Below, in pieces: positions 17,289-58,229 of a stretch of DNA of 64,000 nucleotides. This stretch comes from Bacilli bacterium. Its GTDB lineage: Bacteria > Bacillota_I > Bacilli_A > RFN20 > CAG-826. The position numbers and the translations under genes were made by a program. The stretch covers positions 1,266 to 65,265 of the forward strand of contig JAILEX010000048.1 of the NCBI GenBank assembly GCA_024687185.1. Reading direction: 5' to 3'. Numbering within the stretch: the first letter of the stretch is position 1; each line of letters opens with the position of its first letter. The notes under the pieces were generated by a model. It had not been told where the DNA came from. It did no database searches and saw only the letters and a list, made by a program, of their open reading frames with translations.

Positions 17289-17331
17289 CCAATAACCGAT
17301 GTATGTCTGCCCTTATTTTGTTTTTGCAATG

Positions 17332-18492: not shown

Positions 18493-18513
18493 GGTCAAAC
18501 TCCTTCTTCGCCC

Positions 18514-27100: not shown

Positions 27101-27308
27101 CGCCTTTGGCGTTGACCGAGACCGAGATGTAGTTATCCCCTTCCGGGTCGATGAATTCATAGATGAGGCTATCGTCGGCCTCCTCGAAATGGTAGAAGAC
27201 GAAATAGCCGCCTTCTTGGATTTCCCTTGCGAAATTGACGCAGTTGTTCCTGGCGCGGAAGGATTCGATGAGGGCTTCGGTCTTTTGGGATTCCCTGGTG
27301 AAATACAT
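24129..27308 (-). CDS. SNF2-family helicase/translocase with a ~590-aa N-terminal extension (SNF2-associated-type region)
   Basis: Motifs ILADDMGLGKTLEAIAF, LADEAQFIKN, LTGTPIEN and GGTGLNLIGADIVIHLDPWWNPAAEEQATDRSYRIGQ. I prefer the ATG at 27308 (AAGGAAGGAAAGGG upstream); the track start at 27356 lies inside the SWIM gene. Confidence 0.9.
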   Translation of the reverse strand: MYFTRESQKTEALIESFRARNNCVNFAREIQEGGYFVFYHFEEADDSLIYEFIDPEGDNYISVSVNAKGDIMVPEEYLSLAYHEPPFNYGGACLYLYDREKRLVEENRQKEVYGEDYEKLVSLLSLTPRQLDRRASVRREFIALFDWKYSSITSSAPTYEVQNELKVSFSFEQGYNYYGEESYSLKLVLMDGKERLGLVRSNNSFLNAYENGSIYSIRGGLRIDVSRKNFDESTKAALDYYLSRIHFRKEASVLVKSDVVSLLFALKGENVNFEGKDYLILDKVGAAGFRFSPDESLHFFPAPPSNSTLLLSGSSLACFDKSNFVCELFTFKKPLSADLFLFYRNHGSNETDLIKDLVQSYVPPEDALPMEEGGEITDSMQISLYVDMSERGILLFSTICHLNGHEETMEKLRENLYYREKLNRYASILSHLGGVISGAVRDEGDILHFLSGDLSELRSICSVYLSEAISRLNIKRVGPIDVVINKNAQNWLELRISSAHYDDDTLKLILSQYKKKHRYVRLGDDIIVLEDPYVHEAALIQREVGIKDELYTDKLPFYNAFKLASASITHVGLNLSDYVIEAIDSIRNYTKKKILLPQAIQEVVRPYQKEAIQWMSVLSGYGLSGILADDMGLGKTLEAIAFLSGRGDSRPTLVICPKSVTYNWESEVHKWNPDMPVCVVAGSKETRLGILSNIKKRERGIYVVSYDSLRNDIEEFSKVHFGVVLADEAQFIKNSLSKKAKAVKTLKSDIRFALTGTPIENSLLDLWSIFDFLMPGYLLSYEEFKQQYIDADSSSARDKLLKRITPFILRRSKSQVLKDLPIKSVETITLAMNEYQSEFYEASLLEARKEIEENEKSEEKNRLSIFPILTKLREIAVDPGSFFDNFTEISTKFEYVTSLAETAIASGHKLLIFSSFTKVLENMELALRECDIDSRTISGSTPAQERLLLAEEFNSTDHFKVMLVSLKAGGTGLNLIGADIVIHLDPWWNPAAEEQATDRSYRIGQTRPVSVYKLVCHNSIEEKVLILQEAKKDLSDSLIKEGDSLIRKLSDEDIRFLLS

Positions 27309-27330
27309 GTCTATTCCCTTTCCTTCCTTT

Positions 27331-28797: not shown

Positions 28798-28971
28798 CAA
28801 TACAATATTACTTGTTTTCTTGACAAAGTAAAAAGAAAATTTGATTTTCGCGAAATCTTTTTTTGCCCATAAGGAAACACAAAAAGGGAAAAAGATGGAA
28901 AAACGTCTAATTGTTTCGATGAACGCCTAATTATTTTTCTTTTTCTAGGAAACTTGCCTAGCCACCTCCTC

Positions 28972-32704: not shown

Positions 32705-33604
32705 ATGAAAACCTACTTCCACCATATCGCTTGCCCCGAATGCGGCAAAGGAAACGACTCCAAAAGGACCAGCTGCGTCCATTGCAAGGCCGATTTGAAC
32801 AATAGGGATGCCAAAAAGTTCGAGCAACAGCTCATCGTCCCCTTCTGGAAGGAAATCGTCTTCTTCCTTCTCGCGCTTTTCGGCCTTAGCGCCATCGCAA
32901 CCGTGGTCCAGTCGATCCAGCTTTCCATGGTCATGGGGCAAAACCCCGAACTATCGCTACAAGAGGCCGCGAAGGTCGTCTCTAGCGGCGGGTATATACT
33001 ATTTTTGGAATTCTTCGCCTATGGCATGGTGTTTTTGGGCGCGGGAACGCTTCTATGGTCTTCCTGGAAGGACATAGGCAAATCGCTCGCGAATTGGAAG
33101 CCCTACCTCATGGGCATAGCGGGATTAGCCGTCATCATGGCCTTCGAGATGAGTTACAACATGGTGACCTCGATGATCCTAAAGGCCGCGGGAATCGAAC
33201 CCGCAAGCAACAATAACCAAAGCGCGATCGTCACCATCGTCTCCATGGCCCCGTTTCTTAGCGTAATCGTGTTCGGCTTCATCGGGCCCTTTGTGGAGGA
33301 ACTCGCCTACCGCGTAGGGCTATTCGGCTTCCTTTCTAGGATCAATAAGGTCTTCGCCTACGTTGGCGTGCCCCTAGTCTTCGGCTTGATCCATTTCGAT
33401 TTCGGCGCGGGATTTGATTTCGCCAACGTCTCCTCTTGCGTCAACGAGTGGGTGAACCTACCCATCTATATGTTCTCGGGCCTCGTCTTCTCCTTCCTCT
33501 ATGACAAATTCGGCTTTGGGGCATCGCTGGTCGCCCATACCGCCAATAATGTGTTCTCCATCTCCATGATCATCATCCAAAACGCCGTCGGGGGTAATGC
33601 ATGA
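32705..33604 (+). CDS. CPBP-family intramembrane glutamic protease (CAAX/Abi) with an N-terminal zinc ribbon
   Basis: From the ATG at 32705: CPECG...CVHC zinc ribbon, multiple TM helices, FVEELAYRVGLFG (EExxxR) and VAHTANN (HxxxN). Confidence 0.75.
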   Translation: MKTYFHHIACPECGKGNDSKRTSCVHCKADLNNRDAKKFEQQLIVPFWKEIVFFLLALFGLSAIATVVQSIQLSMVMGQNPELSLQEAAKVVSSGGYILFLEFFAYGMVFLGAGTLLWSSWKDIGKSLANWKPYLMGIAGLAVIMAFEMSYNMVTSMILKAAGIEPASNNNQSAIVTIVSMAPFLSVIVFGFIGPFVEELAYRVGLFGFLSRINKVFAYVGVPLVFGLIHFDFGAGFDFANVSSCVNEWVNLPIYMFSGLVFSFLYDKFGFGASLVAHTANNVFSISMIIIQNAVGGNA

Positions 33605-34482
33605 ACGAGGATAAGACGCTTTTCCTATCTTCCTTCTTGATTCGTCTGCTCGCGCTTTTGACGATGACCCTAGACCATATCGGCATCTTTTTATTGCTTA
33701 AAAACGGCGAAGGGACCCTCGCATATGAGGTCGCAAGCGTCTTCCGCGTCATCGGCAGGATCGCCTTCCCCCTATTCGCGTTTTTGCTCGCGGAAGGCAT
33801 GAGGCATACCTCGAACAAAAACAAATACATGCTTCGCCTATCCATCATGATGGCTTTGATCATGGTCGCCCAAACCATCATGGTCTATGGGGCGAATAAC
33901 ACCCTTTTGGCTAACGCCAGTAACCCTTTCATCGACCTGGTCTTCGTTGCCTTAGTCCTATATTGCCTAAGCTTGCCAAAGGCAAAAAAGCTCTTCGCGT
34001 TGTTCCCTGGGGCGATATTGGTATTCGCCTTTACGGTGGGCTGCATCGAGACAAGCCGCGACATCACCATAACCTGGTGGCCCTTTATGTACCGTCCTAA
34101 CGAGTCCTTGCTAGGGCTAGGGGCCGCGATAGGCTTCTTTTACGCCCCTAGCGTCGCCGCTAAATTCGCCCATAAGTTCAACCAACAGGCCGGGATCTCC
34201 GACGAATTGTTTTTGGAGACCAGCTATGGAAGGCGCAGCGCCAACGTGGTCGGCTGCCTGTTCTATTTCATAACCGTCATGGCCCTATGGGGATTCTCCT
34301 ATATCAACTACAGGGCTTTTGACCCGATAAGCATGTCCATAAAAAGCTGGGGACTGCTCGCCATCATCCCGCTTATCTTCTATAACGGACAGAAGGGAAT
34401 AAGCGGACTTCCAGCCAAAATCGCCTCCTACGCCTATTACCCGGTGCATCTTATTATTCTTTACCTGATTTTTGGTTTATAA
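33601..34482 (+). CDS. TraX-family membrane protein
   Basis: 293 aa, polytopic. N-terminal LIRLLALLTMTLDHIGIFL and RIAFPLFAFLLAEG are typical of TraX. Overlaps the upstream gene's stop. Confidence 0.65.
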   Translation: MNEDKTLFLSSFLIRLLALLTMTLDHIGIFLLLKNGEGTLAYEVASVFRVIGRIAFPLFAFLLAEGMRHTSNKNKYMLRLSIMMALIMVAQTIMVYGANNTLLANASNPFIDLVFVALVLYCLSLPKAKKLFALFPGAILVFAFTVGCIETSRDITITWWPFMYRPNESLLGLGAAIGFFYAPSVAAKFAHKFNQQAGISDELFLETSYGRRSANVVGCLFYFITVMALWGFSYINYRAFDPISMSIKSWGLLAIIPLIFYNGQKGISGLPAKIASYAYYPVHLIILYLIFGL

Positions 34483-34868: not shown

Positions 34869-34897
34869 CGGGCTGCCGCAAGTTGGCAGCCCTTTTT
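34869..34897 (+). terminator. Intrinsic terminator after trxA
   Basis: GGGCTGCC-(loop)-GGCAGCCC followed by TTTTTT. Confidence 0.8.
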
Positions 34898-34909
34898 TCG
34901 CCAAAAACC

Positions 34910-35632
34910 ATGCAAAACCCCTTCCAAATCAAAAATGAGCCCACTTTTTGCAAGGTATTCACCTACCTCTATTTAGGCGTGGGCGTCTCTTTGGCTATCG
35001 CCTATATCGTTACCGGCTTCTTCGATAGCCTTCATCTAGCCACCAACATCCTGAAATTCGTTTTGGTGGTCGCTAGCTTCTTATATGTCTTCATCTATTT
35101 CTGGGTCAGGTTTTTGAAAGACGACGGCTGCAGGGATAGGCTCTTCCTTTGGATCGCCTTGCTTTTTACTCTCGGCGCGGACGTGTTCTTGCTTTTGGTC
35201 AATGACTTTTACGAAGTCGGTGTATCCTTATTCATCGTTGCCCAAATCGTCCATTTCCTTAGGGGCGCGCGCCATTACTATAAAAAGGATAGGGTCTATT
35301 TGGCCATCACCATCGCCTTAAGGGCGGTCCTTTGCATCGTGGCCCCGCTTCTGACTATCCCACTAGACATGGTTAGCCCCACCAACATCCTTACGATGAT
35401 CTATTTCCCAAACCTCATCATGAATTTCGTCGATGGGGTCTATATCGCCGTTAAGGTCAATAGGAGATTGGGTTTGTTCCTTAGCGTTGGCTTTTTGCTT
35501 TTCATCGGCTGCGATATCTGCGTCGGCTTATCTAACGTAGGCCTCCCATTATGGAATCTCATATGGATATTCTATGGTCCCTCCCAAATCGTTTTGGCGC
35601 TATCCTTATCTAGGAGCGAGGAAAAACAATGA
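34910..35632 (+). CDS. Polytopic membrane protein, YhhN-like (lysoplasmalogenase family)
   Basis: Start taken at the internal Met (MQNPFQIK...) because the track's TTG start lies inside the trxA terminator. About 7 TM helices, with two GxD-containing helices (LGADVFLL, IGCDICVGL) resembling YhhN. Family assignment is tentative. Confidence 0.4.
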   Translation: MQNPFQIKNEPTFCKVFTYLYLGVGVSLAIAYIVTGFFDSLHLATNILKFVLVVASFLYVFIYFWVRFLKDDGCRDRLFLWIALLFTLGADVFLLLVNDFYEVGVSLFIVAQIVHFLRGARHYYKKDRVYLAITIALRAVLCIVAPLLTIPLDMVSPTNILTMIYFPNLIMNFVDGVYIAVKVNRRLGLFLSVGFLLFIGCDICVGLSNVGLPLWNLIWIFYGPSQIVLALSLSRSEEKQ

Positions 35633-36345
35633 GCAAAAGAAGGGAAACGATAGGCAAAATACTCTCCTGGGTATCGATCCCCACCTTGATCCTTTTCGTG
35701 ATCGCCAGTGCCTTCATCGTCCAAATCACCCTAAGGCCCTACTATTTTTGGCACGTATCGATGCTAGGGATAGAGCAAAGCAGCGGCTATAGCTTCTCCG
35801 AGATCGCCCTAGCCTTCAATGACGTCATGGACTTCATTTGGTTTGGCGCCCCGTTTAAGACCGGCAACATGCCCTTTAGCGAATCGGGCAAAGCCCATTT
35901 CGAGGACTGCGTGCCCCTATTTCACCTTGACCTATATGTCTTCCTTATCACCGGGGCGATGCTTCTTATCTATTTGGTCCTAGTGAAGACGAAAGTGCTC
36001 CCTAAGCCTAGGCTATTCGGCTTTCACCCCTTCTTCTTTGCCGCTATCGTCTTGCTTCTTTTCCTAAGCGTCATCCTCATCATCGGCATGGTCGATTTCT
36101 ATACCCTGTTCGAGCTATTCCACAAAGTGCTTTTCCCTGGCAAAACCAATTGGATCTTCGATTACCGTACAGACCCCGTGATCAACATATTGCCCGAGTC
36201 CTTCTTCTTATGCTGCGGCATCTTCGCGGGCATCGTCGCGGGAAGCGAGATAATCGCGATGCTAGTTTCCTCCTTGCTTTTCCATACAAGCGAAAAGGAA
36301 GAGAGGAAGATAAAACTCACGCTAGGAATCGAAAAGGTGCTGTGA
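35629..36345 (+). CDS. TIGR01906/DUF1461-family membrane protein (family of the lipoprotein intramolecular transacylase Lit)
   Basis: 238 aa. Overlaps the previous stop (ATGA). Pattern FHKVLFPGKTNWIFDYRTDPVINILPESFF plus 4-5 TM helices matches my recollection of this family. Confidence 0.5.
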   Translation: MSKRRETIGKILSWVSIPTLILFVIASAFIVQITLRPYYFWHVSMLGIEQSSGYSFSEIALAFNDVMDFIWFGAPFKTGNMPFSESGKAHFEDCVPLFHLDLYVFLITGAMLLIYLVLVKTKVLPKPRLFGFHPFFFAAIVLLLFLSVILIIGMVDFYTLFELFHKVLFPGKTNWIFDYRTDPVINILPESFFLCCGIFAGIVAGSEIIAMLVSSLLFHTSEKEERKIKLTLGIEKVL

Positions 36346-41534: not shown

Positions 41535-41996
41535 ATGAAAAAGACAAAAACGTTAATTGGCTTAGTCGCGACGATCTGCGCCATCGTAGCGATCTTCACC
41601 TTGTTCGCCGCCGCATTCGCCGGGGTCAACAACTATCCTTCTGGCAGAGGCAGCGTCTACCAAATCATGTTCGGCAACTATCAGGGCTATGACGCCGTTC
41701 CCGGACTCATCGCCGCCTGGGCCGTCCTTCTCGCCGCTTCCCTTACTTTGCTAATCGGTTCCTTCCTTCCTAGCAAACTCGGCGGAATCGTCCTAGGACT
41801 TGGCGCCCTTCTCTCCCTTACCGCCGGCATCCTCTTCTTCTTCGGCCCTCAGTTCTATCTAGCCGTCATCAATAACGGCCAGCCGGTCGCCGAAGAGAAT
41901 CCGACCCTTGGCTATGGGCTTATCATCTCCGCGATCTTCGCGATCCTAGGCGCCATCATGGGTCTATTCGCGGCCCGCACCGCGATGAAGGCCTAA
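41535..41996 (+). CDS. Small 4-TM membrane protein, unknown function
   Basis: 153-aa hydrophobic ORF followed by a terminator. Confidence 0.5.
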   Translation: MKKTKTLIGLVATICAIVAIFTLFAAAFAGVNNYPSGRGSVYQIMFGNYQGYDAVPGLIAAWAVLLAASLTLLIGSFLPSKLGGIVLGLGALLSLTAGILFFFGPQFYLAVINNGQPVAEENPTLGYGLIISAIFAILGAIMGLFAARTAMKA

Positions 41997-43906: not shown

Positions 43907-44809
43907 ATGAAGGTTGTGACAATCGCGCTTCTCTCCATCGGCGTCGTCGGCGCCGTGGTGGGCGGCATCGGGGTTGGCAAGGTAGTCGCGGGGACGTTTA
44001 AGCCCGACACCACCGAATACCTCGTCGACGAGGTTCAAGTCGACGTCGAAAGTGCCCTAGCCGCCTATAACGATATCAGCAAGGGCAACAAAGACTACAC
44101 CAAGCTTAGCCCTGACCAAGCGGTCCAAGTGGCCTTCCACCGATTCGGCCAGGAAGAGCAAAACTACTCCATCGGCGTCGGTAGCTCCCTCGCTTCCATC
44201 GTCAAGCAGACCATTCTTGCAAGGTCCGCCAAAAACGGCGAGGAATGCTTCGAGGAATCGATATCGTTAGGACTTGTGAACATCCATGACCGCATGTTCC
44301 AGAAGGGGGACAACATCGATACCTATTGGGGCGAAGGCGAGGATTACGCCGCCCACCCCAAAGTGAGTTACTCCGGCACCGATTACGCCTTAATGATGGG
44401 TAGGCAAGTCAAGGAAAGCCTCGTCTACATCGTCGCCCCGGAGACGCTAAACGCAACCTCGCTCTCAGGCGACCCCCTAAGCGGGATCTCCAAAGAGGAC
44501 GATGGTTACAAAATCGAGATCGAACTGGATCCGGTGAAAGGCGTCGCGAACTACCAAAAGCAGATGCAGACCATCTCCGATTTGGCAGCCAAACCCAGCT
44601 TCACCTATTGCCACCTCACCGTCTATACCGACGCCAACCTCGATCTGAAGAGGTTTGAGACCCATGAATCCTACTTCGCCAAAACCAAAGCGGGCGTAGG
44701 AAGCGTGGCGGAGGGAAGGCTTAACACGCTCTATTACCATAACACCCTTCCAGAGGAGGGCTTCCCCAAGGTGGATAGCCCCTCATACAACTACCCAGAA
44801 AGCCTATAA
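43907..44809 (+). CDS. Membrane-anchored (N-terminal TM helix) extracytoplasmic protein, unknown family; first gene of the giant-protein module
   Basis: 300 aa. MKVVTIALLSIGVVGAVVGGIGVG anchor. SD GAAAGGAAG. It lies 30 nt upstream of the next gene. Confidence 0.55.
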   Translation: MKVVTIALLSIGVVGAVVGGIGVGKVVAGTFKPDTTEYLVDEVQVDVESALAAYNDISKGNKDYTKLSPDQAVQVAFHRFGQEEQNYSIGVGSSLASIVKQTILARSAKNGEECFEESISLGLVNIHDRMFQKGDNIDTYWGEGEDYAAHPKVSYSGTDYALMMGRQVKESLVYIVAPETLNATSLSGDPLSGISKEDDGYKIEIELDPVKGVANYQKQMQTISDLAAKPSFTYCHLTVYTDANLDLKRFETHESYFAKTKAGVGSVAEGRLNTLYYHNTLPEEGFPKVDSPSYNYPESL

Positions 44810-44839
44810 GGCAAAAATAGCAATCAAGGAGGAAAAACC

Positions 44840-47800
44840 ATGAAAGGAAATTCCAAGAAGGCGGCAAAGGCCGCCGCCGCAGGAGTCAAAGCGGCCCACA
44901 AAGTCCGCAACGGCATCATCGTTGGGGCCAGCATGTTCGGTTTGTTCGCCGGCAGCGCCGCCACGACCTTCTTCACCACCGAAGGCAAGGTCACGGTCAT
45001 CGACTTAAGGGACGAAGAAGGTGGGGAACCCACCCTTCTTACCGGTAAGGACCGCTTCATCTCCAATTTGGCAAGCAGCGCAACCACCGGTCTAAATATC
45101 TCCGTCACCGACCTTAAGCTAGACCAATATTACGTCGATAGCGAAGGAAATGAGGACACAAGCAAAGGACATAACACCATCACCAATGGCAAGACGACCT
45201 CGGGCGAATCCGCGCCCATCTCGATCGCCTTGAAGATGGATGAGCTCTCCCTACATGGCATTAACCTTGCCCTAACCGCGCCGATTGCCTATAGCAACAA
45301 TGGAAGCAACGCCAAATACCGTGGCGTGCACGCGTCCCTACTTCCCTATGCCTTCGATGGCGAAAACGATGAGCAAACCCTCTTCGTCAACCTCTTCGAT
45401 AACGGCAATGACGTCTTTAGTGAGGACGAAGACGGCAATACGGTGGTCAGCCAATCTAGCGGAGGCAGTTGGAACTTCAAATACCGCGTTGGCGTCGATA
45501 GCAAGGATTCGACCTACTTCGATAGCGAGGCCAACGTCACCGATGCGACCACCCGCGGCACCGAATACTATGAATATGGCGAACTCGACTGGTTCCTCGC
45601 CGATATCCTCGATATCCTCTCCGAAGGCGCCATCAGCGTCGATTTCGGCGACATGATAAACGACCTTTTCTCCAAGGAAACCACCAATAACGCAAACGCC
45701 AACACCCAAGCGGCCGCCACCGAAACCACGGGCGGGGATTCCTCCAACGAGGAAACTAGCGATAGCACCCCAAGCGGCATCTCCATCGATGACATCATGG
45801 CCTCGATGGGCGAGATGCAGGATGTCGGCACCGAAGAAGCCCCCTACTTCGTCTGGGAACTCCCCCTTGGCGATAAGACCTTGGTGCTGGGGATGGGTGG
45901 CGATAGCGAATATAACCTCTCCTCCGTCGATTTGCCCGCCAAAGCCGTCAAGGGCGAAGATGGGACCTATACCCTATCCACCTCCAGCGTGGACCCCTGG
46001 AAGATCCAAGACGGATTGACCTTGTCCGCCCACGCCGATATCAATGGCAACCTCCCCTCCTCTTGGGCGAGTCAGGTCTATGGTAACGTAAGCGACTATA
46101 AAAAGCTCACCGATAGCGCCGCCATGTTCAAGCGCATCGCCAAGGCCGTCGCCTCCCCCGAACTCGGCGTGGACGCCTCCTTCACGATCGGCCATAACGA
46201 GGACGCCGTCGAAGGAAGCCGCACCGTCTTAAGGAAAGACGCCGTCTCCGAGGCATTGAAAATCGACCTTAGCGCCGGACTTGACCTATATGATGACGCC
46301 AATAAGGCCTACGCCCTAGAAGGCATCGACGTCGACTTGAAGATCGACCAGGTCCGCGAATCGACCGACTTCAAAGGACATGAGATCCAGGTCGCCTATT
46401 TAAAAGAGGACGCGGACGCGGAGGTAAGCGCATATAACGCCTACGTCAACGTCAACGACGTGCTTCTTGCCAAAACCAGCAAAACCTACCTCGATGAGCT
46501 CATCACCGACGTCAAGGAATCCACCTTCTTCTCCTCTTCTAGCGAAGACAATCAAAGCGATGGCGTTAGCCTCGATTCCTTCCTTGACCTATTGGGCGAC
46601 GATATCAACGCCATCTTGGATAGCGATTTGGTTAACGGCATCAAATCCGGTTCCTATACCGCAATCGCCGATCTCATCTCCTCTATTGAGGCCAACGACA
46701 ATAACATCACGGTCACCCTCTCTTTGGCGCCACTAGGATTAAATGGCGGCACCATCTCGCTAGTCATCGATGGCGCAACCGACGATAACGGCAACTACAC
46801 CAATAGCCTAGTCGAACTTAGCATCGCTAACGTCAATTTCGGCAATTTCTCCCTTAATGGCACCCTCGAAGTCGATGGCCTTAGCCGCGAAGTCAAGGCA
46901 TTAACCGCCCCGGAAGGCAAAGCGTTTGAAAGCCTAAGCCACGTCAGGGGCATCTTCGGCACCGTCGAGAAGATCGCCGATAGCAAATCCTTCTCCGCCT
47001 CGATTTCTGGCGCCGCCTATAAGGAAGATGGCACCACCAAGAGCATGGAGATCGTCGATAGCGGCCTAGCCTTCAACTTCAACGAAGGCAAGACCTCTGG
47101 CAAAGTCAACGTCGAACTAGACACCTATGGAGACGTCAACCAGCAGCATAACATCAAACTGGGCCTAGACAACATGGACGTCGTTAGCCTAGACGAGAAC
47201 AATAACGAAGTGACCACCAACGACAAGGTCATCGGATTCTCCTATGATTCCAAGTCCACCAAGGAGAACTTCGTCAGCCAGTCTAGCGACAAAGCGGTTT
47301 CCGGCAGGGTTGGGCTCAATTCCGCCAAAACCGCATTGGACAACATCGATTTGGGCAACCTCCTCTCCTTCTTCTCCGATGACGATAGGTTCTCTCGCCT
47401 ATCAAGCGCCCTATTGAAGGAAGAATCCGGTTCGCTTTTAAGCGATTTGATGTCTGGCAAATATTTCGGACTATTCGAAAAACAGGGCCTTATCTCGAGC
47501 CTTTCCTTAGGAAGCACCACCGACTTGACCATCGATGCCAGCAAACTTGGCATGGAAGGCACCACGATCGACCTCTCCCTCTCCTATCTTGCCAACACCG
47601 AATCCGTCGATGAGGACAATAACGCCTCGATCGTCGAAGGCGGATTAGACGCCTTAAACCTCGTCATCAAGAAAGACGGCGTCAAATCCTTTGAGGTGAA
47701 GGTAGATGAAATCGATACCCTAGAGGACACCTCCACCAAGGTCGCTTCCTTCGCCGACATCACTTCCCTCGATGACTTCACCCCGATCGTCGACCTAGCC

Positions 47801-48898
47801 GGCGAATTGCTTAACACGCTCACCCTAGGCTATTCTAGCGATGAAAATGACACCGCCACGCAATCCCAAAGCGAAACCCTAACGGGCGTCTCCTACTATG
47901 GAGTGGAAGGCTCGGTCGGACTAGAACTCGTCGGCGACGAGGTCGAGATCTATGACTTCGATGCGCAGGCCTCGGTCGAAGGCGCGGAAACCAAACTCGC
48001 CGTCAACTTCGATGACCTCCCCGTAGTCCGTGGCCTAAACGGTCCCAATTCCGATACCTACTATCGCCGCAACGAACTCCTTGGGCAGAGGGATAGCAAC
48101 ATCTATTTCTACGCCAACGGCATTAATCCCGAGGGCGAATTCCTACTTACCCGCGATTCCTCCTATGGCAAGGTAAGGAACGTCAAAGACGCCGTCAGGG
48201 TCTCTGGCAAGGATTACACGAGCGACTTCCTTAACTGGGTCCTTGAATACACCATCGGCGTAGACGAATCCCTGCTTGAAGAAGATAGCGAAAACACCTC
48301 TACCTCCACCGAAACCACGGCGGAAACTACCAGCGAAGCCGCCTGGAACCCCTTCGCCAACGGCATCCATATCGCCGATTGCTGGAACGGTTTCTCCGTC
48401 GATACCGCCGCAGCCAACAAAACCACCTATACCCTAGGGCTAGACCTAGGCGAACTCCTAGGCATCGGCATCTTAGGCGATGCTAACGTCAAACTCGTCT
48501 CCAACGACCTAAAATGCGGCAACGTCTCCGCCAGATGCCTAAGCGAAGTCCATGTTTCCGCCGGCGTCGACGTGACCTCCACCAGCGACACCACCATGCA
48601 CATCGCAAGCGTCTCCGTCGACTTGGCCCTCACCAACCTTGGCGACGTCGACGATAACGGCTATAGCCTAGTCGACCCGGTCCTTGGCGAAGGAAGCAAT
48701 TATTATTCTCTTTTTGTCGGCACGGTCGACGATAATGGCAAAATGGATAGCCAGAATACCGTCTTAGGCGAACTATATTCGCTAAAGGACGGCTTCCAAT
48801 CCGACGACGTGAACAATGCCTACTATAACCTCTATGGCTATAACCTCATCGGCAAGGAAAACGTAGTCGCGGGCAACTACTATTTAGGCATCGACTAA
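44840..48898 (+). CDS. Giant (1352 aa) acidic membrane-anchored surface protein, unknown family (paralog A)
   Basis: Uninterrupted 4-kb ORF with a strong SD (AAGGAGGAAAAACC-ATG). Lys/Ala-rich cytoplasmic tail, then a TM helix (IIVGASMFGLFAGSAATTFF), then a D/E/S/T/N/G-rich ectodomain. Collinear with the next gene. Confidence 0.7.
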   Translation: MKGNSKKAAKAAAAGVKAAHKVRNGIIVGASMFGLFAGSAATTFFTTEGKVTVIDLRDEEGGEPTLLTGKDRFISNLASSATTGLNISVTDLKLDQYYVDSEGNEDTSKGHNTITNGKTTSGESAPISIALKMDELSLHGINLALTAPIAYSNNGSNAKYRGVHASLLPYAFDGENDEQTLFVNLFDNGNDVFSEDEDGNTVVSQSSGGSWNFKYRVGVDSKDSTYFDSEANVTDATTRGTEYYEYGELDWFLADILDILSEGAISVDFGDMINDLFSKETTNNANANTQAAATETTGGDSSNEETSDSTPSGISIDDIMASMGEMQDVGTEEAPYFVWELPLGDKTLVLGMGGDSEYNLSSVDLPAKAVKGEDGTYTLSTSSVDPWKIQDGLTLSAHADINGNLPSSWASQVYGNVSDYKKLTDSAAMFKRIAKAVASPELGVDASFTIGHNEDAVEGSRTVLRKDAVSEALKIDLSAGLDLYDDANKAYALEGIDVDLKIDQVRESTDFKGHEIQVAYLKEDADAEVSAYNAYVNVNDVLLAKTSKTYLDELITDVKESTFFSSSSEDNQSDGVSLDSFLDLLGDDINAILDSDLVNGIKSGSYTAIADLISSIEANDNNITVTLSLAPLGLNGGTISLVIDGATDDNGNYTNSLVELSIANVNFGNFSLNGTLEVDGLSREVKALTAPEGKAFESLSHVRGIFGTVEKIADSKSFSASISGAAYKEDGTTKSMEIVDSGLAFNFNEGKTSGKVNVELDTYGDVNQQHNIKLGLDNMDVVSLDENNNEVTTNDKVIGFSYDSKSTKENFVSQSSDKAVSGRVGLNSAKTALDNIDLGNLLSFFSDDDRFSRLSSALLKEESGSLLSDLMSGKYFGLFEKQGLISSLSLGSTTDLTIDASKLGMEGTTIDLSLSYLANTESVDEDNNASIVEGGLDALNLVIKKDGVKSFEVKVDEIDTLEDTSTKVASFADITSLDDFTPIVDLAGELLNTLTLGYSSDENDTATQSQSETLTGVSYYGVEGSVGLELVGDEVEIYDFDAQASVEGAETKLAVNFDDLPVVRGLNGPNSDTYYRRNELLGQRDSNIYFYANGINPEGEFLLTRDSSYGKVRNVKDAVRVSGKDYTSDFLNWVLEYTIGVDESLLEEDSENTSTSTETTAETTSEAAWNPFANGIHIADCWNGFSVDTAAANKTTYTLGLDLGELLGIGILGDANVKLVSNDLKCGNVSARCLSEVHVSAGVDVTSTSDTTMHIASVSVDLALTNLGDVDDNGYSLVDPVLGEGSNYYSLFVGTVDDNGKMDSQNTVLGELYSLKDGFQSDDVNNAYYNLYGYNLIGKENVVAGNYYLGID

Positions 48899-48990
48899 GC
48901 CAAAATTCCCGCAAAACCCAACTATTTATCTCCCCATTTCCCCCTTTTCGCTAAGGGGGGTGGGGGAAAGTAAAAAGGAAAAAGAAGAAC

Positions 48991-51900
48991 ATGTTCCAAT
49001 CTCTCGCCAAAATGTCTCTTCCCCTAATCTTAGGGTCCTTTTTACTTTCCTGCGCGTACCTACACGCGCCTACGCAAGAAGAAAACGTAGAGCCCGTATC
49101 GGAGACCTTGTCCAAGGAAACGATATCGAAGCAGCTTTCCTCTATCGTGAAATCCGGTCTAAGGCTAGATATGTCTTCCCTTAAGGTCGCCATCCCCTCC
49201 AAGATCGAGACCGTCGATAACGTCCTCGATTTCTCTGGGGCCCACGCCAAATTGAGGGTAGACGAACTATCGTTGCACGGCATAGAAGCCGAGATCGCCG
49301 CCGATCTAGACTATAACGGCGTCAATAAAGACGTCGATTTCCTGCTTTCCGATGAGGAACTCTATTTTTCTCTGGTCGACCACGCCAATCTCGATGGCTT
49401 CCGCTTCAAAAGCTCCATAAAGTCCTATGATGAATCAGATGGCGGCTACGATGAGACCACCCGCGGCGTGCTCTATTACGAATATGGCTCCCTCGACTAT
49501 TTCCTCTATAGCGTGTTCGAATCCTTCGATCTGCCCTCGATCAGTTTGGATTTGTCTAGTAACGGGGAAAGCGCCTCGATCGATTTCTCTTCGATCGCCG
49601 ACGCCACCAATTCCATCGAGCAAATCGATGCCCATACCTTTAAGCTATCTCTTCCCGTCGGGGAAGAAACCCTGCCCATCGGCCTATATTCGGATTCGGA
49701 GGGGACATTAAGCAAAATCGGCTTCCCCTATGGCCAAGACGAATATGAATTCTCCAACGGGGTGAAGGTTTCCTTTCTAGGCGAAGTCTCCACCTTCTCC
49801 GAGGCGTTTACCCTTCCCTATGAAGAAAGCCAATACCTCAACCTAAGCGATTCGCTTGAGCTCATCAAGGATATCGGAAGCAAGATCACCAACAAGAAAT
49901 TCGGCGTCGAGGCAAATCTTAACGTCTACCACAAAGAAGACGCGGTAGAAGGAAGCGAGGAGCTTTTCTCTCGCGACGCCCTAGAGGAAAGCGCGACCCT
50001 AACGGCGAATGTGGACGTCGACCTAAGCGAATCCTACCATGACCTCACCGCCGCGGTCGCCCTTTCTAGTTCCTCATCCTCGGAAACCATCGACCTCCAT
50101 ATCGATGACGATAGCGGGACCGCCAATTGCTATTTCGATTTCAATTCCGGCGTTTTAAAAGGCTTTTCGAGCGTCTCCGCCTTCTCTTCCCTTTGGAACG
50201 CCTTATCCACCTTGATGTCCAACGAAGACATCCAAAACAATGAGATCATGGCCCTTCTTTCCGGGCTACTCGCCACTAGCGATTCCATTAGCGCGGCAAT
50301 AGACGGGGTAAAGACCTCGGCCGTAGGCACCGCCATCAGCGAAGGCCACTATGAAGGCATCCTTAACGCCATCGACCATATCGCCCACGAAGACAACAAA
50401 ATCGTCATCGATTTGGATTTGTCCCATGCGGGCGGATCTGGAAGCGCGAGGATCGTCCTTGATTCTAACGCCACTAACCTACTAGAGGTCACCTTAGATA
50501 ACGCGGGCATCGTAACCACGACCTCCCCCGCCCTTTCCTTACTTGTAAGCGGCAGCGTCATCCTGAGGGATTATGAGCTCCATTCCTTCGATGCCTCTAG
50601 TTACGAAGGGAAGGAATACCGCCACCTCCCCTCACTTGCCTCCTCTTTGGAAAAATTCGCAGGTAGCGACCAACTTTCGGCCGATATAAGCGGCTATATG
50701 ATCCAAAAGGGCACCACCGCGGTCACAAGCTATACCCTTCCTAGCTGGGACGGCAACTCCACCTTCGCCTCCACCGGCTTCTCCTTCTCTGGAAGCCTTG
50801 GCTTTGATTTGGAGGAAAAAACGGGTGCCGGCAAAATGACCTTCGTCGATAGGAAGGAAGGCTATTTCAATGACCATAACATCTATGTCGACGTCACCGG
50901 CGGAGAAGGGGAAAACGACACTAACGAAAAGGATTTTAGCGGCAACGAAGGCGATATAGGCGAAACGGGCTATATGCTCGCGCAATACGATTCCAAAAAC
51001 GCCGATACCTCGAATTCCAGCGAAAAGCGCACCAACCCCAATGACGATAGTTCCCCCATCAAGGGCAGATTCAGCATCCATTCCCTCGATAACGTCCTCG
51101 ATTCCGTGGCGGAGCTTCTTTCCTCCACCGATCCCCGTTTCAAGCGTCTTACCAACCTCTTTAACGGGGTAATGAACGAATCGATCATCTCCTCGATCAT
51201 CGATGGCTATTACCTAAAGGCCCTTTCCGAAGGCTTCTTCGAAAGCAGCTATATCAGCGACAATGGCATCACCATAGTCGCCAGGGAAGGCTTCATCTAT
51301 TCCGGATACGAGCTTAGCATCCGCGTTAGTTTCGGCGAGGATTACCTAGACGAAGAAGGCGTCACCCAGCCTGGGAAGATCAAAACGCTTGAGATACTTT
51401 CCCAAAACAAGGACGCGAGCGATGGCACCGACATCTACGCCAAGATCGAACTCCATAGCGCCTCCTTCCCAAACGACGATATCGGTTTTAACTTCATCAA
51501 TAAGGACGCTAATGGCTCCTATTCCTGGAAAAGCGGCCACTCTTTAAGCGAATTCACCTCCTTCTCCTCCATCGGTAACCTCGTAAACTTCCTCCTAGAC
51601 ACGATCACCTTAGGCACCACGGACTCTAGCACCGTCACGACCTATCACCTTCACCTCTATGTCGATTTAGACGTCCCCCTCATTTCTTCTTTGGACACCA
51701 CGATCGAGGCCGACTTCTATATCTATCTAGATGGCACCAACGTCAAAATCCTTGGCAATCTGCACTATGAGAAGTCCAAATTCCTCGCCTGGGGCATCAT
51801 CGACAAGGAAGCCTACGTCAATATCTTCTACGAGACTAGCGGCGAGGATAGCGATGGCGACCTCTATATCACTAGAAGCGTCCCAGACGATTCCGAGATG

Positions 51901-52551
51901 ACGACCACCAGAAGGGTCGATGGCAGCGACTTCTCCGCGAATATGCTCGATTGGCTGTCCTATATCTTCTATTTCGGCGACACCATCACCGAACATCTGG
52001 ATAACGATTCCTCCTCCTCTAGCAGCGAAGCGCTCCATGGCGAAGACCTGATCAAGGGCTTCTCCACCACCGGAAGCTACGCCAACCCCTATTGGAACCT
52101 CACCGTCGACATCGGTTCCGTTTTGCCTTCCTCCTTGGAAAGATGGCTAAGCTTTGAACAGACCACCGTCACTATCGGCGGCTCCACCGTCAGCTATAGC
52201 AATGCCGGCAAATCATACGAGAAACAAACCCTTTCTAGTTTGGACACCACGCTTAAGATCAAGTTGCTTGGCGCAAGCTGGCTTTCGATTGAAGCCAAGG
52301 TCGACATCGACATGAAAAACGCCGCCAATAACGTCTATACCGACGCCTGGAACAGCGGCTCCACCTGCGCCTATTACATGACCTCCACCGCCCATAAGAT
52401 ACTCGGCGCCACCATCTGGACCGACTATGACCTACATACCGACCACACGGGCACCCCTTCCGCCATCTTCTCTGGGCAATATGGCAAGTCCACTTCCAAC
52501 TCGACCTATAACTCCACGCCCTACTACGTGACCCCCGACACCTTGGCCTAA
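48991..52551 (+). CDS. Giant (1186 aa) acidic lipoprotein, unknown family (paralog B)
   Basis: Lipoprotein signal MSLPLILGSFLLSC. It shares ordered sequence blocks with 44840-48898: DELSLHGI, TTRGxxYYEYGxLD[WY]F, H[NK]EDAVEGS, D[DP]RF[SK]RL. Confidence 0.7.
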   Translation: MFQSLAKMSLPLILGSFLLSCAYLHAPTQEENVEPVSETLSKETISKQLSSIVKSGLRLDMSSLKVAIPSKIETVDNVLDFSGAHAKLRVDELSLHGIEAEIAADLDYNGVNKDVDFLLSDEELYFSLVDHANLDGFRFKSSIKSYDESDGGYDETTRGVLYYEYGSLDYFLYSVFESFDLPSISLDLSSNGESASIDFSSIADATNSIEQIDAHTFKLSLPVGEETLPIGLYSDSEGTLSKIGFPYGQDEYEFSNGVKVSFLGEVSTFSEAFTLPYEESQYLNLSDSLELIKDIGSKITNKKFGVEANLNVYHKEDAVEGSEELFSRDALEESATLTANVDVDLSESYHDLTAAVALSSSSSSETIDLHIDDDSGTANCYFDFNSGVLKGFSSVSAFSSLWNALSTLMSNEDIQNNEIMALLSGLLATSDSISAAIDGVKTSAVGTAISEGHYEGILNAIDHIAHEDNKIVIDLDLSHAGGSGSARIVLDSNATNLLEVTLDNAGIVTTTSPALSLLVSGSVILRDYELHSFDASSYEGKEYRHLPSLASSLEKFAGSDQLSADISGYMIQKGTTAVTSYTLPSWDGNSTFASTGFSFSGSLGFDLEEKTGAGKMTFVDRKEGYFNDHNIYVDVTGGEGENDTNEKDFSGNEGDIGETGYMLAQYDSKNADTSNSSEKRTNPNDDSSPIKGRFSIHSLDNVLDSVAELLSSTDPRFKRLTNLFNGVMNESIISSIIDGYYLKALSEGFFESSYISDNGITIVAREGFIYSGYELSIRVSFGEDYLDEEGVTQPGKIKTLEILSQNKDASDGTDIYAKIELHSASFPNDDIGFNFINKDANGSYSWKSGHSLSEFTSFSSIGNLVNFLLDTITLGTTDSSTVTTYHLHLYVDLDVPLISSLDTTIEADFYIYLDGTNVKILGNLHYEKSKFLAWGIIDKEAYVNIFYETSGEDSDGDLYITRSVPDDSEMTTTRRVDGSDFSANMLDWLSYIFYFGDTITEHLDNDSSSSSSEALHGEDLIKGFSTTGSYANPYWNLTVDIGSVLPSSLERWLSFEQTTVTIGGSTVSYSNAGKSYEKQTLSSLDTTLKIKLLGASWLSIEAKVDIDMKNAANNVYTDAWNSGSTCAYYMTSTAHKILGATIWTDYDLHTDHTGTPSAIFSGQYGKSTSNSTYNSTPYYVTPDTLA

Positions 52552-52582
52552 CATTCGCCCCTCCATGGGCTATAATTAGCGT

Positions 52583-54004
52583 ATGGGCTTCCTCTTTTTC
52601 AAAAACCATAAACCCAAAACCGTCTCCTTCCGTTTGCCTTTTGACTTCGATATGGAAGTGGAGGAGAAGGTCGTTTTCGATGAGCGTCTTTTTAATGACA
52701 ACAAAACCTACTCAAAGGATTTGGCCAGGCTTTCCTTCGCCTTCGCCGTCTCTAGTTTCTCCTCCAACCGCGCTAGAAGCGACCTATCCAAAAGCGCCGA
52801 TAACGGAATCGAGTTCCTGTCCCAATGCGGCTTTAGAAAGATAAGGCCCACAATCGACTATTCTCTTCCCCCAACCCCCTATTCCCTAGGGGCGATATTC
52901 GGGAAGAGGAAAATCAAAATCGGCAAAAGGAAGCTGACCCTAATCGCAATCGGCGTAAGGGGTGGCAACTATGGGGCCGAATGGGCCAGTAACGTCACCT
53001 TGGGCAAGAAAGGACCCCATGAAGGCTTTGCCTTATCAAAGGAAAAGCTCTACCAGGATTTCATCTCCTATCTATTGGATTATAGGATAAAAGGCAAAAT
53101 CGCCATCTGGGTGACCGGCTTTTCTAGGGCCGGAGGCGTCGCCAATCTTTTCGCCGGGGATATCCTCGACGAATCCAAAGAGGAAAGGCTGACGATCCAT
53201 AAGGCAAGCATCGATAGGGATTCGGTCTATGCCTATTGCTTCGCCTCCCCTTCTACGGGAGAAAAGGAAAACCAAGGGTATCAAGGCATCTTCCATACCC
53301 TTAATCCCAATGATGCGGTTCCCCTTATCCCTCCTAAGGAATTCGGCTTTTCCCATTATGGGGAAGTCATCTACCTCCCCGATTTCTATGATGAGGATAT
53401 CAACATAAAGGCCAGGGAAATATTGGACCGTCTAGGCGTAGGGGTTCCCAAAAAGGAATTCTACATGATGAAATTCGACCTTCTCCATATGAAGGATAAG
53501 GAAAGAAGATGCGTAGTGGACGCCAAGGCAATCCTAGTCAAACAAAGCGAATTCCTGACCCGCGTCCGCCTGGCTTTGACTAGCGGGATGGATAGGGAAG
53601 GCTATTACGAAAACGTGCAGGATGGCCTAGCCTCTTTGCTTGGACTGGTCGATTCCTCCCTCGAAAACCCCTATATCCATATCAAAAACGTCCTCTCCAG
53701 CCTTTTCTCTTCCATGTTCGAGGAACATAATGGCATATCGCTACTTAGCAAATTGCTATCCAAAAAATTCGACATGGCCTCCTTCCTCGCCCCCTATGCC
53801 GAAAAGGCGCTTGAAGAAGAGAAGCTAGACAATATAGATAAGGATAAGATAGCCCTCTCGCTCACTTACCTAGCGAAGGCCTCTTTGCCGTATCTACAGA
53901 AAAACACGGACCTAGTGGCGACGATGATCGGAGGCGATAATTCCTCCCTTATCCTGCTTGCCCATACACCCGCCCTTTATTGGGCGCTTTTAAACCAAAT
54001 CTAG
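52583..54004 (+). CDS. Alpha/beta-hydrolase, lipase class 3-like protein (no signal peptide seen)
   Basis: 473 aa. IWVTGFSRAGGVANLFAG resembles the lipase_3 nucleophile elbow, and NPNDAVPLIP resembles the Asp-containing DxVPxLP strand. It starts 31 nt after the giant lipoprotein gene. Confidence 0.5.
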   Translation: MGFLFFKNHKPKTVSFRLPFDFDMEVEEKVVFDERLFNDNKTYSKDLARLSFAFAVSSFSSNRARSDLSKSADNGIEFLSQCGFRKIRPTIDYSLPPTPYSLGAIFGKRKIKIGKRKLTLIAIGVRGGNYGAEWASNVTLGKKGPHEGFALSKEKLYQDFISYLLDYRIKGKIAIWVTGFSRAGGVANLFAGDILDESKEERLTIHKASIDRDSVYAYCFASPSTGEKENQGYQGIFHTLNPNDAVPLIPPKEFGFSHYGEVIYLPDFYDEDINIKAREILDRLGVGVPKKEFYMMKFDLLHMKDKERRCVVDAKAILVKQSEFLTRVRLALTSGMDREGYYENVQDGLASLLGLVDSSLENPYIHIKNVLSSLFSSMFEEHNGISLLSKLLSKKFDMASFLAPYAEKALEEEKLDNIDKDKIALSLTYLAKASLPYLQKNTDLVATMIGGDNSSLILLAHTPALYWALLNQI

Positions 54005-54112: not shown

Positions 54113-54751
54113 ATGAACAACTTAGCCGCCACGATTGGCAAAAACATCGCTTCTTTACGCAAAGCCAAGGGAATGACCCAGCAGGATTTGGCCGAAGAAA
54201 TCCACTATAGCGACAAATCGATCTCCAAATGGGAGCTCGGTTATAGCGCCCCAAGCATCGATATCCTAATGGACATCGCCCATTTTTTCGGCGTCAGCGT
54301 AGACTATCTTCTAAGGGAGCAAACCGATGCCTCAATCCTAGAGGTAGCCGAGAACGAGGAAGCCAAAAAGGAAGAAAACAATAGGGCCATCTCCCAAGCC
54401 ATCATGCTTGCCATGTCGATGACTTTCTGCGTGCTGGTCGCCGTTTGCATCTTCTTCTCGCCCTTCTTCTTCGATCCAGCCAATGGGAAGCTTGTGTGGC
54501 AGGCCTTCATCTGGATGATCCCCGCCTCGCTTCTTGTGGCCATTATCGAGGTCCAATACTTCTACCATAACCGCCTCGCTAGGACGGTGCTTGCCTCCGT
54601 CTTCATATGGGCCCTTCTTATCGCCTTCGCGGTCCAATTCGCCTATGGTAACCCGCAGGGGCAGCAAGAAAGCGTCTGGTTCATATTGGCCGTAGGGGCG
54701 CCGCTACAGGTCATCGTCATCCTCTACCATAACTATAGAAGGTTCCATTAA
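54113..54751 (+). CDS. XRE-family HTH regulator with a C-terminal 4-TM domain
   Basis: N-terminal LRKAKGMTQQDLAEEIHYSDKSISKWELGYSAPSIDILMDIAHFFGVSVDYLL, followed by hydrophobic helices. Confidence 0.8.
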   Translation: MNNLAATIGKNIASLRKAKGMTQQDLAEEIHYSDKSISKWELGYSAPSIDILMDIAHFFGVSVDYLLREQTDASILEVAENEEAKKEENNRAISQAIMLAMSMTFCVLVAVCIFFSPFFFDPANGKLVWQAFIWMIPASLLVAIIEVQYFYHNRLARTVLASVFIWALLIAFAVQFAYGNPQGQQESVWFILAVGAPLQVIVILYHNYRRFH

Positions 54752-57203: not shown

Positions 57204-58229
57204 TCAATAGGCGTGGTGTTTCCTAGCTTCGCGCATCGCTTTGCGGCGGCCCTTTTCGGCTTGCTTTCTGCCATACCTGGTAAGTTCTTCCTCGCCATCG
57301 TCGACTTCGATTGTCCTATAGTGAGGCGCCTCTTCCTTTTCCTCTATCTTCTTGGCTTCCTTTGTTTCCTCGGGCTCATAGGGCCTAGGCTCGCTTCTAT
57401 CTAATTCCATCGAGGCAAGTTCTTTCCTAAGTAAATCATGGTGGCCCGATTCATATAGTTCGTCTAATTGGGCGATCTTCTCGGCCTCGACCTTCCTTAA
57501 GGCGCGGTTACGGAGATAGTGGTAGGATTCCTCGTTCAGCTCTTCTCCGCCTGCGGCATCGATATTATGGCCAAGAAGCAAATATAGGAGCTCATCGTAT
57601 CTTCTTTGCTTCCAAAACTGGCGGAACTGGTAGCGGATTAGCGACCTCTTGGAATTCTTCTTTGCGCATTTCCTCGCCTTCCTATAGGCCGAATAGATGG
57701 GCGAGAACTCGCTTGAATAGATATAGCTATAGAACAAAGCGAATATATCGGCGAACGCGACCCCGCTTGCATAGACCAAGATGGAATAGACATAAGCGTA
57801 ATAAAGGATCTTCAAATTGAATTCGATGGGGAGTCTGGTGAAGAGGAAGGAAAGGAAATAATAGGACACAAAGCCTAGAATCGAGGCGATGAAGCCGATA
57901 CCTGGGATGATATGGAGCGCGCTAAGGAAGGGTTTGCGGTTGGTAATCAAAATAAGATTTACGCTGCCTAAAAGCGCCCCAACCACGGAGATGGGGATGC
58001 AGACCACCATCTTCAAAAACTCGATGCCCGAATAATCGAAAGTCACGTTGACGGCGACGATCACGATCCTAAAGTCATCGACCATCGCCTTGACGTCTGG
58101 GACGCTAAAGGCAAGAAGGTATAGGATCGTGGATAGCAAGATAAGCGACAAAGAAATAAGCCCAACCACCGAAAACCCGGTATTGGGGCGGGAGGGTCGG
58201 CCTTCTTTTAAAAGATGCACATCAAGCAT
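57204..58229 (-). CDS. Hypothetical polytopic membrane protein with a charged cytoplasmic C-terminal region
   Basis: 341 aa. About 5 TM helices, then a Lys/Glu/Arg-rich tail. No recognisable motif. Confidence 0.5.
   Translation of the reverse strand: MLDVHLLKEGRPSRPNTGFSVVGLISLSLILLSTILYLLAFSVPDVKAMVDDFRIVIVAVNVTFDYSGIEFLKMVVCIPISVVGALLGSVNLILITNRKPFLSALHIIPGIGFIASILGFVSYYFLSFLFTRLPIEFNLKILYYAYVYSILVYASGVAFADIFALFYSYIYSSEFSPIYSAYRKARKCAKKNSKRSLIRYQFRQFWKQRRYDELLYLLLGHNIDAAGGEELNEESYHYLRNRALRKVEAEKIAQLDELYESGHHDLLRKELASMELDRSEPRPYEPEETKEAKKIEEKEEAPHYRTIEVDDGEEELTRYGRKQAEKGRRKAMREARKHHAY

Follow-up and report, generated by a model that had tools for sequence, protein, structure and literature searches.

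A conserved module of giant, tandemly built surface proteins, a small partner with a predicted LolA-type fold and a putative transmembrane regulator in uncultured gut Bacilli

The 64,000-nucleotide (nt) stretch considered here, referred to as a whole as the window, comprises positions 1,266 to 65,265 of contig JAILEX010000048.1 from the Bacilli bacterium assembly GCA_024687185.1, and carries a gene module of about 8.6 kb whose products we call S, A and B (Table 1). S is a small protein with a strongly hydrophobic N-terminus (residues 1-29), and A and B are giants. Their three plus-strand open reading frames (ORFs) follow one another with gaps of 30 nt (S to A) and 92 nt (A to B), each is preceded by a Shine-Dalgarno-like sequence, and the intergenic gaps contain no terminator-like site; the three look like a co-transcribed module. 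An initial annotation, made by reading the letters of this DNA, had portrayed them as closely spaced same-strand genes for one small anchored protein and two acidic, Cys-poor giants, and in these respects it proved accurate: the ORFs and their spacing are as described, and isoelectric points of 4.1 (A) and 4.3 (B), an Asp plus Glu content of 15-16%, a Ser plus Thr content of 18-22% and three Cys per giant bear out the composition. Over the giants (44001-54000) the window also shows its strongest base skews (GC skew -0.10 to -0.17, AT skew +0.06 to +0.22), which probably reflect the Asp/Glu/Ser/Thr/Asn-rich coding strand rather than replication.

The three anchoring signals that had been read from the sequence are likewise supported by hydrophobicity and, for B, by the conservation of its Cys. 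In A, the hydrophobic segment that follows the Lys/Ala-rich tail may alternatively be cleaved off as a signal, given its S-A-A ending. B is predicted to be a bacterial lipoprotein, having a signal peptide and a lipobox, L-L-S-C at residues 18-21, whose Cys is kept in the orthologs within FSC, SGC or LSC motifs. Across the wider giant family an N-terminal hydrophobic anchor or a lipobox is present in 154 of 161 full-length representatives, and most of the other seven look like mis-called starts, with the lipobox Cys close to the annotated start.

Table 1. Features of the module, its lipase-like neighbour and the putative regulator, with coordinates in the window
Feature	Position (nt)	Strand	Remarks
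S	43907-44809	+	300 aa; N-terminal membrane anchor, residues 1-29
S ectodomain	44030-44746	+	~residues 42-280; predicted LolA/LolB/LppX/RseB-like fold
A	44840-48898	+	1352-aa giant
A anchor or signal	44912-44974	+	residues ~25-45; Gly/Ala-rich, hydrophobic, after Lys/Ala-rich cytoplasmic tail
A modules	M1 45056-46153; M2 46160-46981; M3 46988-47821	+	mapped from B by alignment
D..TTRG..YYEYG.LDWF motif in A	45541-45598	+	most conserved shared motif; contains ACCACCCGCGGC at 45548
A C-terminal region	47888-48823	+	
B	48991-52551	+	1186-aa giant, predicted lipoprotein, paralog of A
B signal and lipobox LLSC	48991-49053	+	residues 1-21
B modules	M1 49123-49890; M2 49897-50664; M3 50671-51606	+	boundaries suggested by the structure model; homologous by hhalign
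D..TTRG..YYEYG.LDWF-type motif in B	49449-49506	+	ACCACCCGCGGC at 49456
B C-terminal region	51634-52470	+	
L	52583-54004	+	473 aa, class-3 lipase-like; Pfam Lipase_3 E=1.8e-6, 28.3 bits against a cutoff of 22
Putative regulator	54113-54751	+	212 aa; XRE-type helix-turn-helix, residues 12-66 (nt 54146-54310), Pfam HTH_3 E=3.3e-17
Membrane part of putative regulator	54383-54730	+	residues 91-206; four hydrophobic helices

That A and B are collinear paralogs, as had been proposed, is borne out by BLASTP (E=6e-28, 25% identity, collinear along about 880 residues) and by every quoted motif block being found at its place. Their relatedness is still visible at the DNA level, where the 12-mer ACCACCCGCGGC occurs exactly twice, with 0 occurrences expected by chance, and is part of a 58-nt stretch with 76% identity between A and B; the D, T, G, E, G and D columns of the TTRG/YYEYG motif encoded here are invariant in the alignment of A and B. 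A and B as found in the window go back to an old duplication within one clade. The initial annotation had further stated that the giants lack internal repetition, which stands for the DNA, where we found no internal repeats, and for inspection by eye, but not for profile comparison. When a 175-member family alignment was cut at boundaries suggested by the structure model described below and the pieces were compared profile to profile with hhalign, the first module of B, M1 (residues 45-300), matched M2 (303-558) with a probability of 94.9% (E=4.2e-8, 178 columns), and M2 matched M3 (561-872) with a probability of 97.8% (E=6.7e-13, 177 columns); an earlier test with shallow profiles of 25 sequences had given 85% for M2 against M3. 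The C-terminal pieces of B, M4 and M5, did not match any other piece significantly (probability below 4%). Because M1 matches M2 and M2 matches M3, a giant is, as far as profile comparison can tell, an anchor, a tandem array of three anciently related modules (about 260-310 residues each) and a C-terminal region of some 300 residues that is unrelated to them. Relatives carry the same unit in larger numbers: an 1805-aa protein has three extra copies, and a 4042-aa lipoprotein in a very distant locus, L028, has at least six. Such multiplication suggests an extensible chain more than a compact enzyme.

Residues invariant in the giants comprise H96, D154, E164, D169, H545, H629, R716 and R962, and many of the invariant polar positions sit in the membrane-proximal module and not at the distal tip. 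Only about one third of the family representatives have the hallmark motifs LSLHG and YEYG, and the most strongly conserved block of the A subfamily, AxVEGAETK...PVIRGVN...YANG...TR.SSYG, lies in the C-terminal region.

Neither the giants nor S had shown a recognisable domain at first reading, and systematic searches agree with this. S, A and B have no match in Pfam, NCBIfam, PHROGs or PADLOC, and searches of PDB sequences with single sequences and with profiles returned nothing relevant, the only match being a chance one to a WD40 protein at E=1.2. Pfam searches of 25 giants at E<=1 and of seven distant giants detected no AsmA, AsmA_2, TamB (DUF490) or adhesin domain, and LPXTG, SLH, Ig-like/FN3/cadherin, RHS/YD and lectin domains are missing from the giants by Pfam and NCBIfam alike. 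By these searches the S and giant families are absent from the curated libraries consulted, and the literature on LolA-like proteins in mycoplasmas or Gram-positives yielded no description of the module. A phage-derived or anti-phage defence origin was considered and rejected, given the lack of PHROGs and PADLOC matches (the lipase-like neighbour L has no PADLOC match either) and given that Foldseek comparison of the B model with viral structures produced matches with template modelling (TM) scores of 0.08 or less only. A mobile-element or defence origin was also dropped in view of the stable housekeeping context: the window is ordinary chromosome, with an F-type ATP synthase operon, addAB-like genes, pepF and a clpB-like gene.

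Word-indexed searches retrieved 15 (A), 11 (B) and 14 (S) clusters, all metagenomic, and an exhaustive search with a giant profile retrieved 285 cluster representatives at E<=1e-3 (183 at E<=1e-30; median length about 1160 aa), the sole label on any cluster of the giant family being 'hypothetical protein [Bacilli bacterium]'. A scan of one genome per GTDB species with an alignment of A alone located 25 loci in about 22 genomes. These are all assemblies of uncultured organisms from the rumen or gut and go by the labels Erysipelotrichaceae, Bacilli, Candidatus Enteromonas or Candidatus Alloenteromonas; a few bins with other labels are obviously misassigned. Candidatus Enteromonas belongs to order RFN20, family CAG-826, and has genomes of about 1.2 Mb (PMC8035907). 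CAG-826 is predicted to be peptidoglycan-deficient and RFN20 has been reported to be without sortases (PMC10868615). The set of S, giant and regulator was seen in no organisms other than uncultured and probably wall-less Bacilli of the gut and rumen.

The order S, A-type giant, B-type giant, accompanied by a regulator, recurs in all sufficiently long loci among the 25, so the synteny of the triad, whose absence elsewhere would have spoken against a module, is strongly supported. S lies directly upstream of a giant in each examined locus that has S. More distant loci are simpler: L030-L032 have a divergent regulator, an S homolog and one giant (two in L031), and in L029 the order is S, a single giant, regulator, with S homologs that match the S profile at E values from 1e-35 to 1e-70. 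Because the distant loci keep just these, the conserved core is, on gene order, regulator plus S plus giant. In the window and in L029-L032 only 2-30 nt separate the stop of S from the start of the giant, and the two are probably translationally coupled. In L031 the second giant (13418-17452 of that locus) is a 1344-aa family member with a type IV prepilin-like N-terminus (MKKRSGFTVIELI..., GFTVIE), which overlaps the stop of the 1805-aa member by one base and is followed by a gene for an N_methyl protein; genes for a glycosyltransferase and an LPG_synthase_TM protein stand on either side of the divergent regulator.

The regulator of the window is a fourth conserved member that the initial annotation had missed. 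Its 212-aa product, with an N-terminal helix-turn-helix (HTH) and a membrane part, has the features of a transmembrane transcription regulator and is predicted to be one. Homologs of 200-220 aa lie between A and B or just after B in the close loci, the layout of HTH and membrane helices is repeated in L030 and L032, and a regulator adjoins the giants in every sufficiently long locus, its position and orientation varying between lineages. The known regulator BcrR has a topology of four helices. BcrR-type regulators resemble the protein of the window in being one-component, with an N-terminal XRE-type HTH followed by membrane helices and without a soluble sensor domain, and transmembrane transcription regulators often act with a co-encoded partner (PMC10269533). 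A tblastn search of the regulator against plasmids, aimed at BcrR, found generic HTH regulators only and established no homology to BcrR.

The first indication of what the module might do comes from the predicted structure of S. An AlphaFold2 (AF2) model built from a 14-sequence alignment reached a mean predicted local distance difference test (pLDDT) of 84 and a predicted TM score (pTM) of 0.80. It contains 11 strands and 4 helices, two of the helices directly behind the anchor and ahead of the strands, the other two inserted among the strands. The predicted fold is that of LolA-type proteins, an unclosed antiparallel barrel with some 11 strands and a lid or plug made of helix. In a Foldseek search of the PDB the matches were RseB (top), an ependymin-related protein, LppX, LolA and LolB, with probabilities of about 1.0; 8 of the 10 best matches belong to the LolA/LolB/LppX/RseB superfamily or to the LolA-like ependymin group (probability 0.99-1.0, TM 0.27-0.44). 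Weak matches to a steroid lyase and a bilin lyase, both enzymes, were also seen. S has no NCBIfam match and no PDB profile match, and its predicted likeness to LolA-type proteins is one of fold only. LolA, LolB and RseB of Gram-negatives share with it the eleven-stranded unclosed barrel with a helical plug, which in their case binds acyl chains, whereas no outer membrane, Lol pathway or sigma-E system is expected in the hosts of the module and the invariant residues of S are polar. LppX and LprG of mycobacteria are anchored extracytoplasmic half-barrels with a helical lid that carry glycolipids or triacylglycerides, and LppX (2byo) matches S with a probability of 1.0 and TMt 0.44, a likeness of fold only. 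Unlike them, S is held by a transmembrane helix and not by lipid, shows no sequence similarity to them and comes from Bacillota and not from an actinobacterium. Among 38 diverse orthologs, the residues that S keeps invariant are for the most part polar or charged (E116, E117, R129, Q219, E254, Y216, Y256 and H236), a hint of a specific interface, of head-group binding or of catalysis.

The AF2 model of B, built from a 25-sequence alignment, is of lower confidence (pLDDT 74.9, pTM 0.60) and shows sheets of strands 12-19 residues long alternating with helical inserts of up to 65 residues. The whole chain was searched by Foldseek and its 50 best PDB matches were inspected. A local match to LprG of Mycobacterium tuberculosis (3mh8; probability 0.99, TMt 0.42) extends over 255 columns, that is, one module length, and weaker matches were to the lipid-binding sheets of ApoB100 and lipovitellin. 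TamB, other bridge-like lipid-transfer structures and P116 were not among these 50 best matches, in what is, with a model of pTM 0.60, an insensitive search. Each module is modelled as a large antiparallel sheet of long strands with a helical insert, comparable in size and make-up to a single LolA or LprG domain, and, from module size, secondary structure and the single local LprG match, we infer that each may be a LolA/LprG-like half-barrel. If so, the giants would differ from LppX and LprG in stringing together three or more such units within one chain of 1200-4000 aa.

The second indication comes from the neighbourhood. L, directly downstream of B, is lipase-like by a Pfam match above the cutoff, although its nucleophile elbow, G-F-S-R-A-G, deviates from GxSxG at the fifth position (the homolog in L028 has G-F-S-R-G-G). 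It has no Shine-Dalgarno sequence, and a promoter-like site at 52548-52576 (CTAACA-17-TATAAT) places TATAAT 7 nt before the ATG; given the missing ribosome-binding site and this spacing, L is probably transcribed separately and its transcript is perhaps leaderless. The initial annotation had wondered whether the triad would be conserved together with this gene. The triad is, but L has no homolog in any of the 27 close loci (L001-L027) and is a lineage-specific neighbour, not a conserved member of the module. All the same, a Lipase_3 gene directly follows the last giant in both the window and L028, a very distant locus, where the homolog of L (E=7e-23) has a lipobox and begins 14 nt after the 4042-aa giant, and a gene for a patatin-type phospholipase lies 1-3 genes from the module in five other genomes. 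The recurrence of lipases beside the module is suggestive but not strong. The L028 region itself (8001-20129) encodes the 4042-aa lipoprotein, which has a weak CBM_5_12 match, then the Lipase_3 lipoprotein and a 172-aa membrane protein, and no separate S gene was called upstream of the giant.

Other genes related to lipids lie 8 kb upstream of the module in the window, where a gene for a TraX-family membrane protein (33601-34482, +) precedes a YhhN-family gene (34883-35632, +) whose stop is overlapped by 4 nt by a Lit gene (35629-36345, +; Pfam E=1e-33), the three forming a lipid- and lipoprotein-modifying cluster. Lit is a lipoprotein intramolecular transacylase that makes lyso-form lipoproteins, and YhhN is a membrane protein of the lysoplasmalogenase type; YhhN is syntenic also in the distant locus L029. 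By analogy with LprG-Rv1410c, the upstream major facilitator superfamily (MFS) transporter was considered as a functional partner, but the idea was dropped because genes on the opposite strand lie between it and S and the distant loci lack it.

We tentatively favour, without giving it even odds, a reading in which the module is a surface apparatus that captures or transfers lipid or another hydrophobic ligand. The giants would project from the single membrane as chains of half-barrels, possibly as an A-B pair, and could bind fatty acids, lyso- or phospholipids, sterols or glycolipids that are partly freed by neighbouring lipases. The ligands would then be relayed from module to module and on to the membrane-proximal S, which would insert them into the membrane or, in the opposite case, extract them from it, the reverse (export) direction being equally possible. 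The regulator may sense the state of the membrane and set the expression of the module accordingly. The suggestion of a lipid groove, one of two speculations in the initial annotation, thus gains indirect support from the predicted fold of S, the LprG match in B and the recurring lipases. Pressed further, the same evidence could describe an independently evolved, extensible LolA/LprG-like chain peculiar to wall-less gut Bacilli, with three half-barrels per giant here and at least six in the 4042-aa relative, which passes lipids freed by lipases to S under the regulator's control and is a functional parallel of P116 and of the Gram-negative bridge proteins while being unrelated to both; taken jointly, these more specific claims are possible but doubtful.

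Several observations weigh against lipid handling. The TM-scores of S to LolA-type structures are modest (0.31-0.44), and Pfam searches of 14 S orthologs at E<=10 found no LolA, LolB, LppX_LprAFG, MucB_RseB or related DUF family. The S profile shows no relation to the giant modules in shallow or deep alignments, and the polar invariants of S are unusual for a promiscuous lipid carrier. A LolA-like fold can moreover serve a non-lipid role, as in GerS of Firmicutes, which activates an amidase (bioRxiv 10.1101/2021.06.21.449279). Matches of the whole B chain to LptD, the FimD usher and porins have TM values of about 0.07 and reflect generic large curved sheets. Lipase neighbours occur in only about one third of the genomes, the adjacency of the patatin gene is in part inherited synteny with pepF, and L has no signal peptide. 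The wall-less state of the source organism is itself extrapolated from relatives. Finally, the giants diverge much faster than their neighbours, the products of L003 being 44% identical to the window proteins for A and B and 52% for S as compared with 71-78% for the MFS, cobW and pepF products, and this is what would be expected of an exposed adhesin or coat.

It is indeed an adhesin or protective coat that we regard as the chief rival, possible though we incline against it: the exposed, acidic, Ser/Thr-rich giants would attach the cell to feed particles, microbes or the host, or would stand in for the wall, and S would be their membrane-proximal base or chaperone. Besides the rapid divergence, the more than 1100 extracellular residues behind the N-terminal anchor, the acidic isoelectric point and the Ser/Thr-rich linkers agree with this, as does the multiplication of modules up to 4042 aa, which is reminiscent of adhesin stalks; the prepilin-type N-terminus of the L031 relative and the weak CBM_5_12 match of the L028 giant point the same way. 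On the other hand, Pfam detected no adhesin, Ig-like, SLH, LPXTG or lectin domain in the 25 plus 7 members searched, the giants are single-copy in a fixed chromosomal context among housekeeping genes and have no phase-variation repeats, adhesins are not typically tied so strictly to a membrane regulator and a protein of LolA fold, and many of the invariant polar residues sit in the membrane-proximal module instead of the distal tip. An unlikely, though coherent, arrangement is an envelope-sensing complex in which S serves the regulator as an extracytoplasmic co-sensor, in the manner of RseB-RseA or ToxS-ToxR, and the giants are its antenna or its regulated output. RseB is the top structural match of S, the polar invariants of S would suit a specific interface, and the regulator, which is always adjacent, consists only of an HTH and four membrane helices without an external domain and belongs to a class for which co-encoded partners are frequent (PMC10269533). 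Yet S lies immediately upstream of the giant, to which it is probably coupled, rather than of the regulator, whose place and orientation shift between lineages, and the conservation of 2300-4000 residues of modular protein would be left unexplained.

A little less probable still is that the giants are extracellular enzymes, or a scaffold for enzymes, acting on envelope or nutrient polymers, with the invariant His, Asp, Glu and Arg residues listed above as active or metal sites. The invariant E116, E117, R129, H236 and E254 of S and its weak structural matches to the two lyases could be read in the same sense, but no library searched contains a matching catalytic family, LSLHG and YEYG are too restricted within the family to be family-wide active sites, and multiplication of modules would be unusual for an enzyme. 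The other speculation of the initial annotation in its literal form, a true AsmA/TamB/YhdP homolog with a continuous beta-taco groove, we consider highly improbable. A beta-rich stretch exceeding 1000 residues behind an N-terminal anchor would fit it, parts of the B model do consist of five strands and then a helix, and the top whole-chain Foldseek match is to LptD, a lipid-transport protein. However, that match has a TM of 0.07, no AsmA, AsmA_2 or TamB domain was found by Pfam in 25 members even at E<=1, no TamB or bridge-like structure was among the 50 best PDB matches, the modules are discrete and repeated with helical inserts of 50-65 residues, and the lineage has no second membrane to bridge.

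AsmA-like bridge proteins work with small partners, as in TamB-TamA and in YdbH-YnbE-YdbL of E. coli. The module shares with them an N-terminally anchored, beta-rich giant, one or more small envelope partners and a proposed role in lipid transfer, but its giants are made of discrete repeated modules instead of one continuous groove, there is no periplasm to span, and no homology was detected. A wall-less cell must manage its single membrane and acquire lipids without a periplasm or wall, and P116, described in mycoplasmas only, is to our knowledge the sole dedicated surface lipid extractor reported so far. The wall-less Mycoplasma pneumoniae depends on this essential protein, in which duplicated domains of a sheet and amphipathic helices surround a hydrophobic cavity and which scavenges lipids that the cell cannot make (PMC10023570). 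Like the giants, P116 is large (about 1000 aa), sits at the surface and is anchored in the membrane, and it comes from a wall-less organism related to the RFN20-type Bacilli; unlike them, it is a homodimer without a LolA-like partner or dedicated regulator, and it was found neither by sequence in the PDB searches nor among the 50 best Foldseek matches of B. In fold or architecture the parts of the module resemble known kinds: the predicted fold of S is of LolA type, the anchors are those of lipoproteins and membrane proteins, and the regulator is of the transmembrane class. No description of the module as such turned up in the databases and literature searched.

RFN20 and its kin are common in the rumen and gut. 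Their genomes measure about 1.2-1.8 Mb, and gene catalogues are the only source on their biology. In such a small genome the module takes up some 8.6 kb; none of the related genomes examined lacks it, and no domain library searched recognises it. If lipid handling were its role, it would represent a second, architecturally different solution to the problem that P116 solves, and the first case of LolA-type units concatenated into giants. Should the giants instead prove to be adhesins or a coat, they would still be the dominant conserved surface structure of the lineage and offer a handle for enrichment, imaging and cultivation. In either case the families of S, of the giants with their 285 representatives and of the regulator deserve family models.

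The window holds a few further features of note. A 153-aa multi-pass membrane protein without a Pfam match (41535-41996, +) is syntenic between the MFS transporter and a CarD-like gene in many loci, and a 341-aa protein encoded after pepF (57204-58229, -), also without a Pfam match, has a similar-sized unannotated counterpart at the equivalent place in L001. A second and unrelated candidate surface protein, of 627 aa with a Big_2 (bacterial Ig-like) domain, is encoded at 3766-5649 (-). At 24129-28800 (-) the genes for a 1075-aa SNF2-family helicase (SNF2_assoc) and a 489-aa SWIM zinc-finger protein overlap; beside them lie those for an AddA-like protein (UvrD-helicase, 1093 aa), an AddB-like protein (PDDEXK_1, 805 aa) and, at 17332-18498, a DUF5677 protein.

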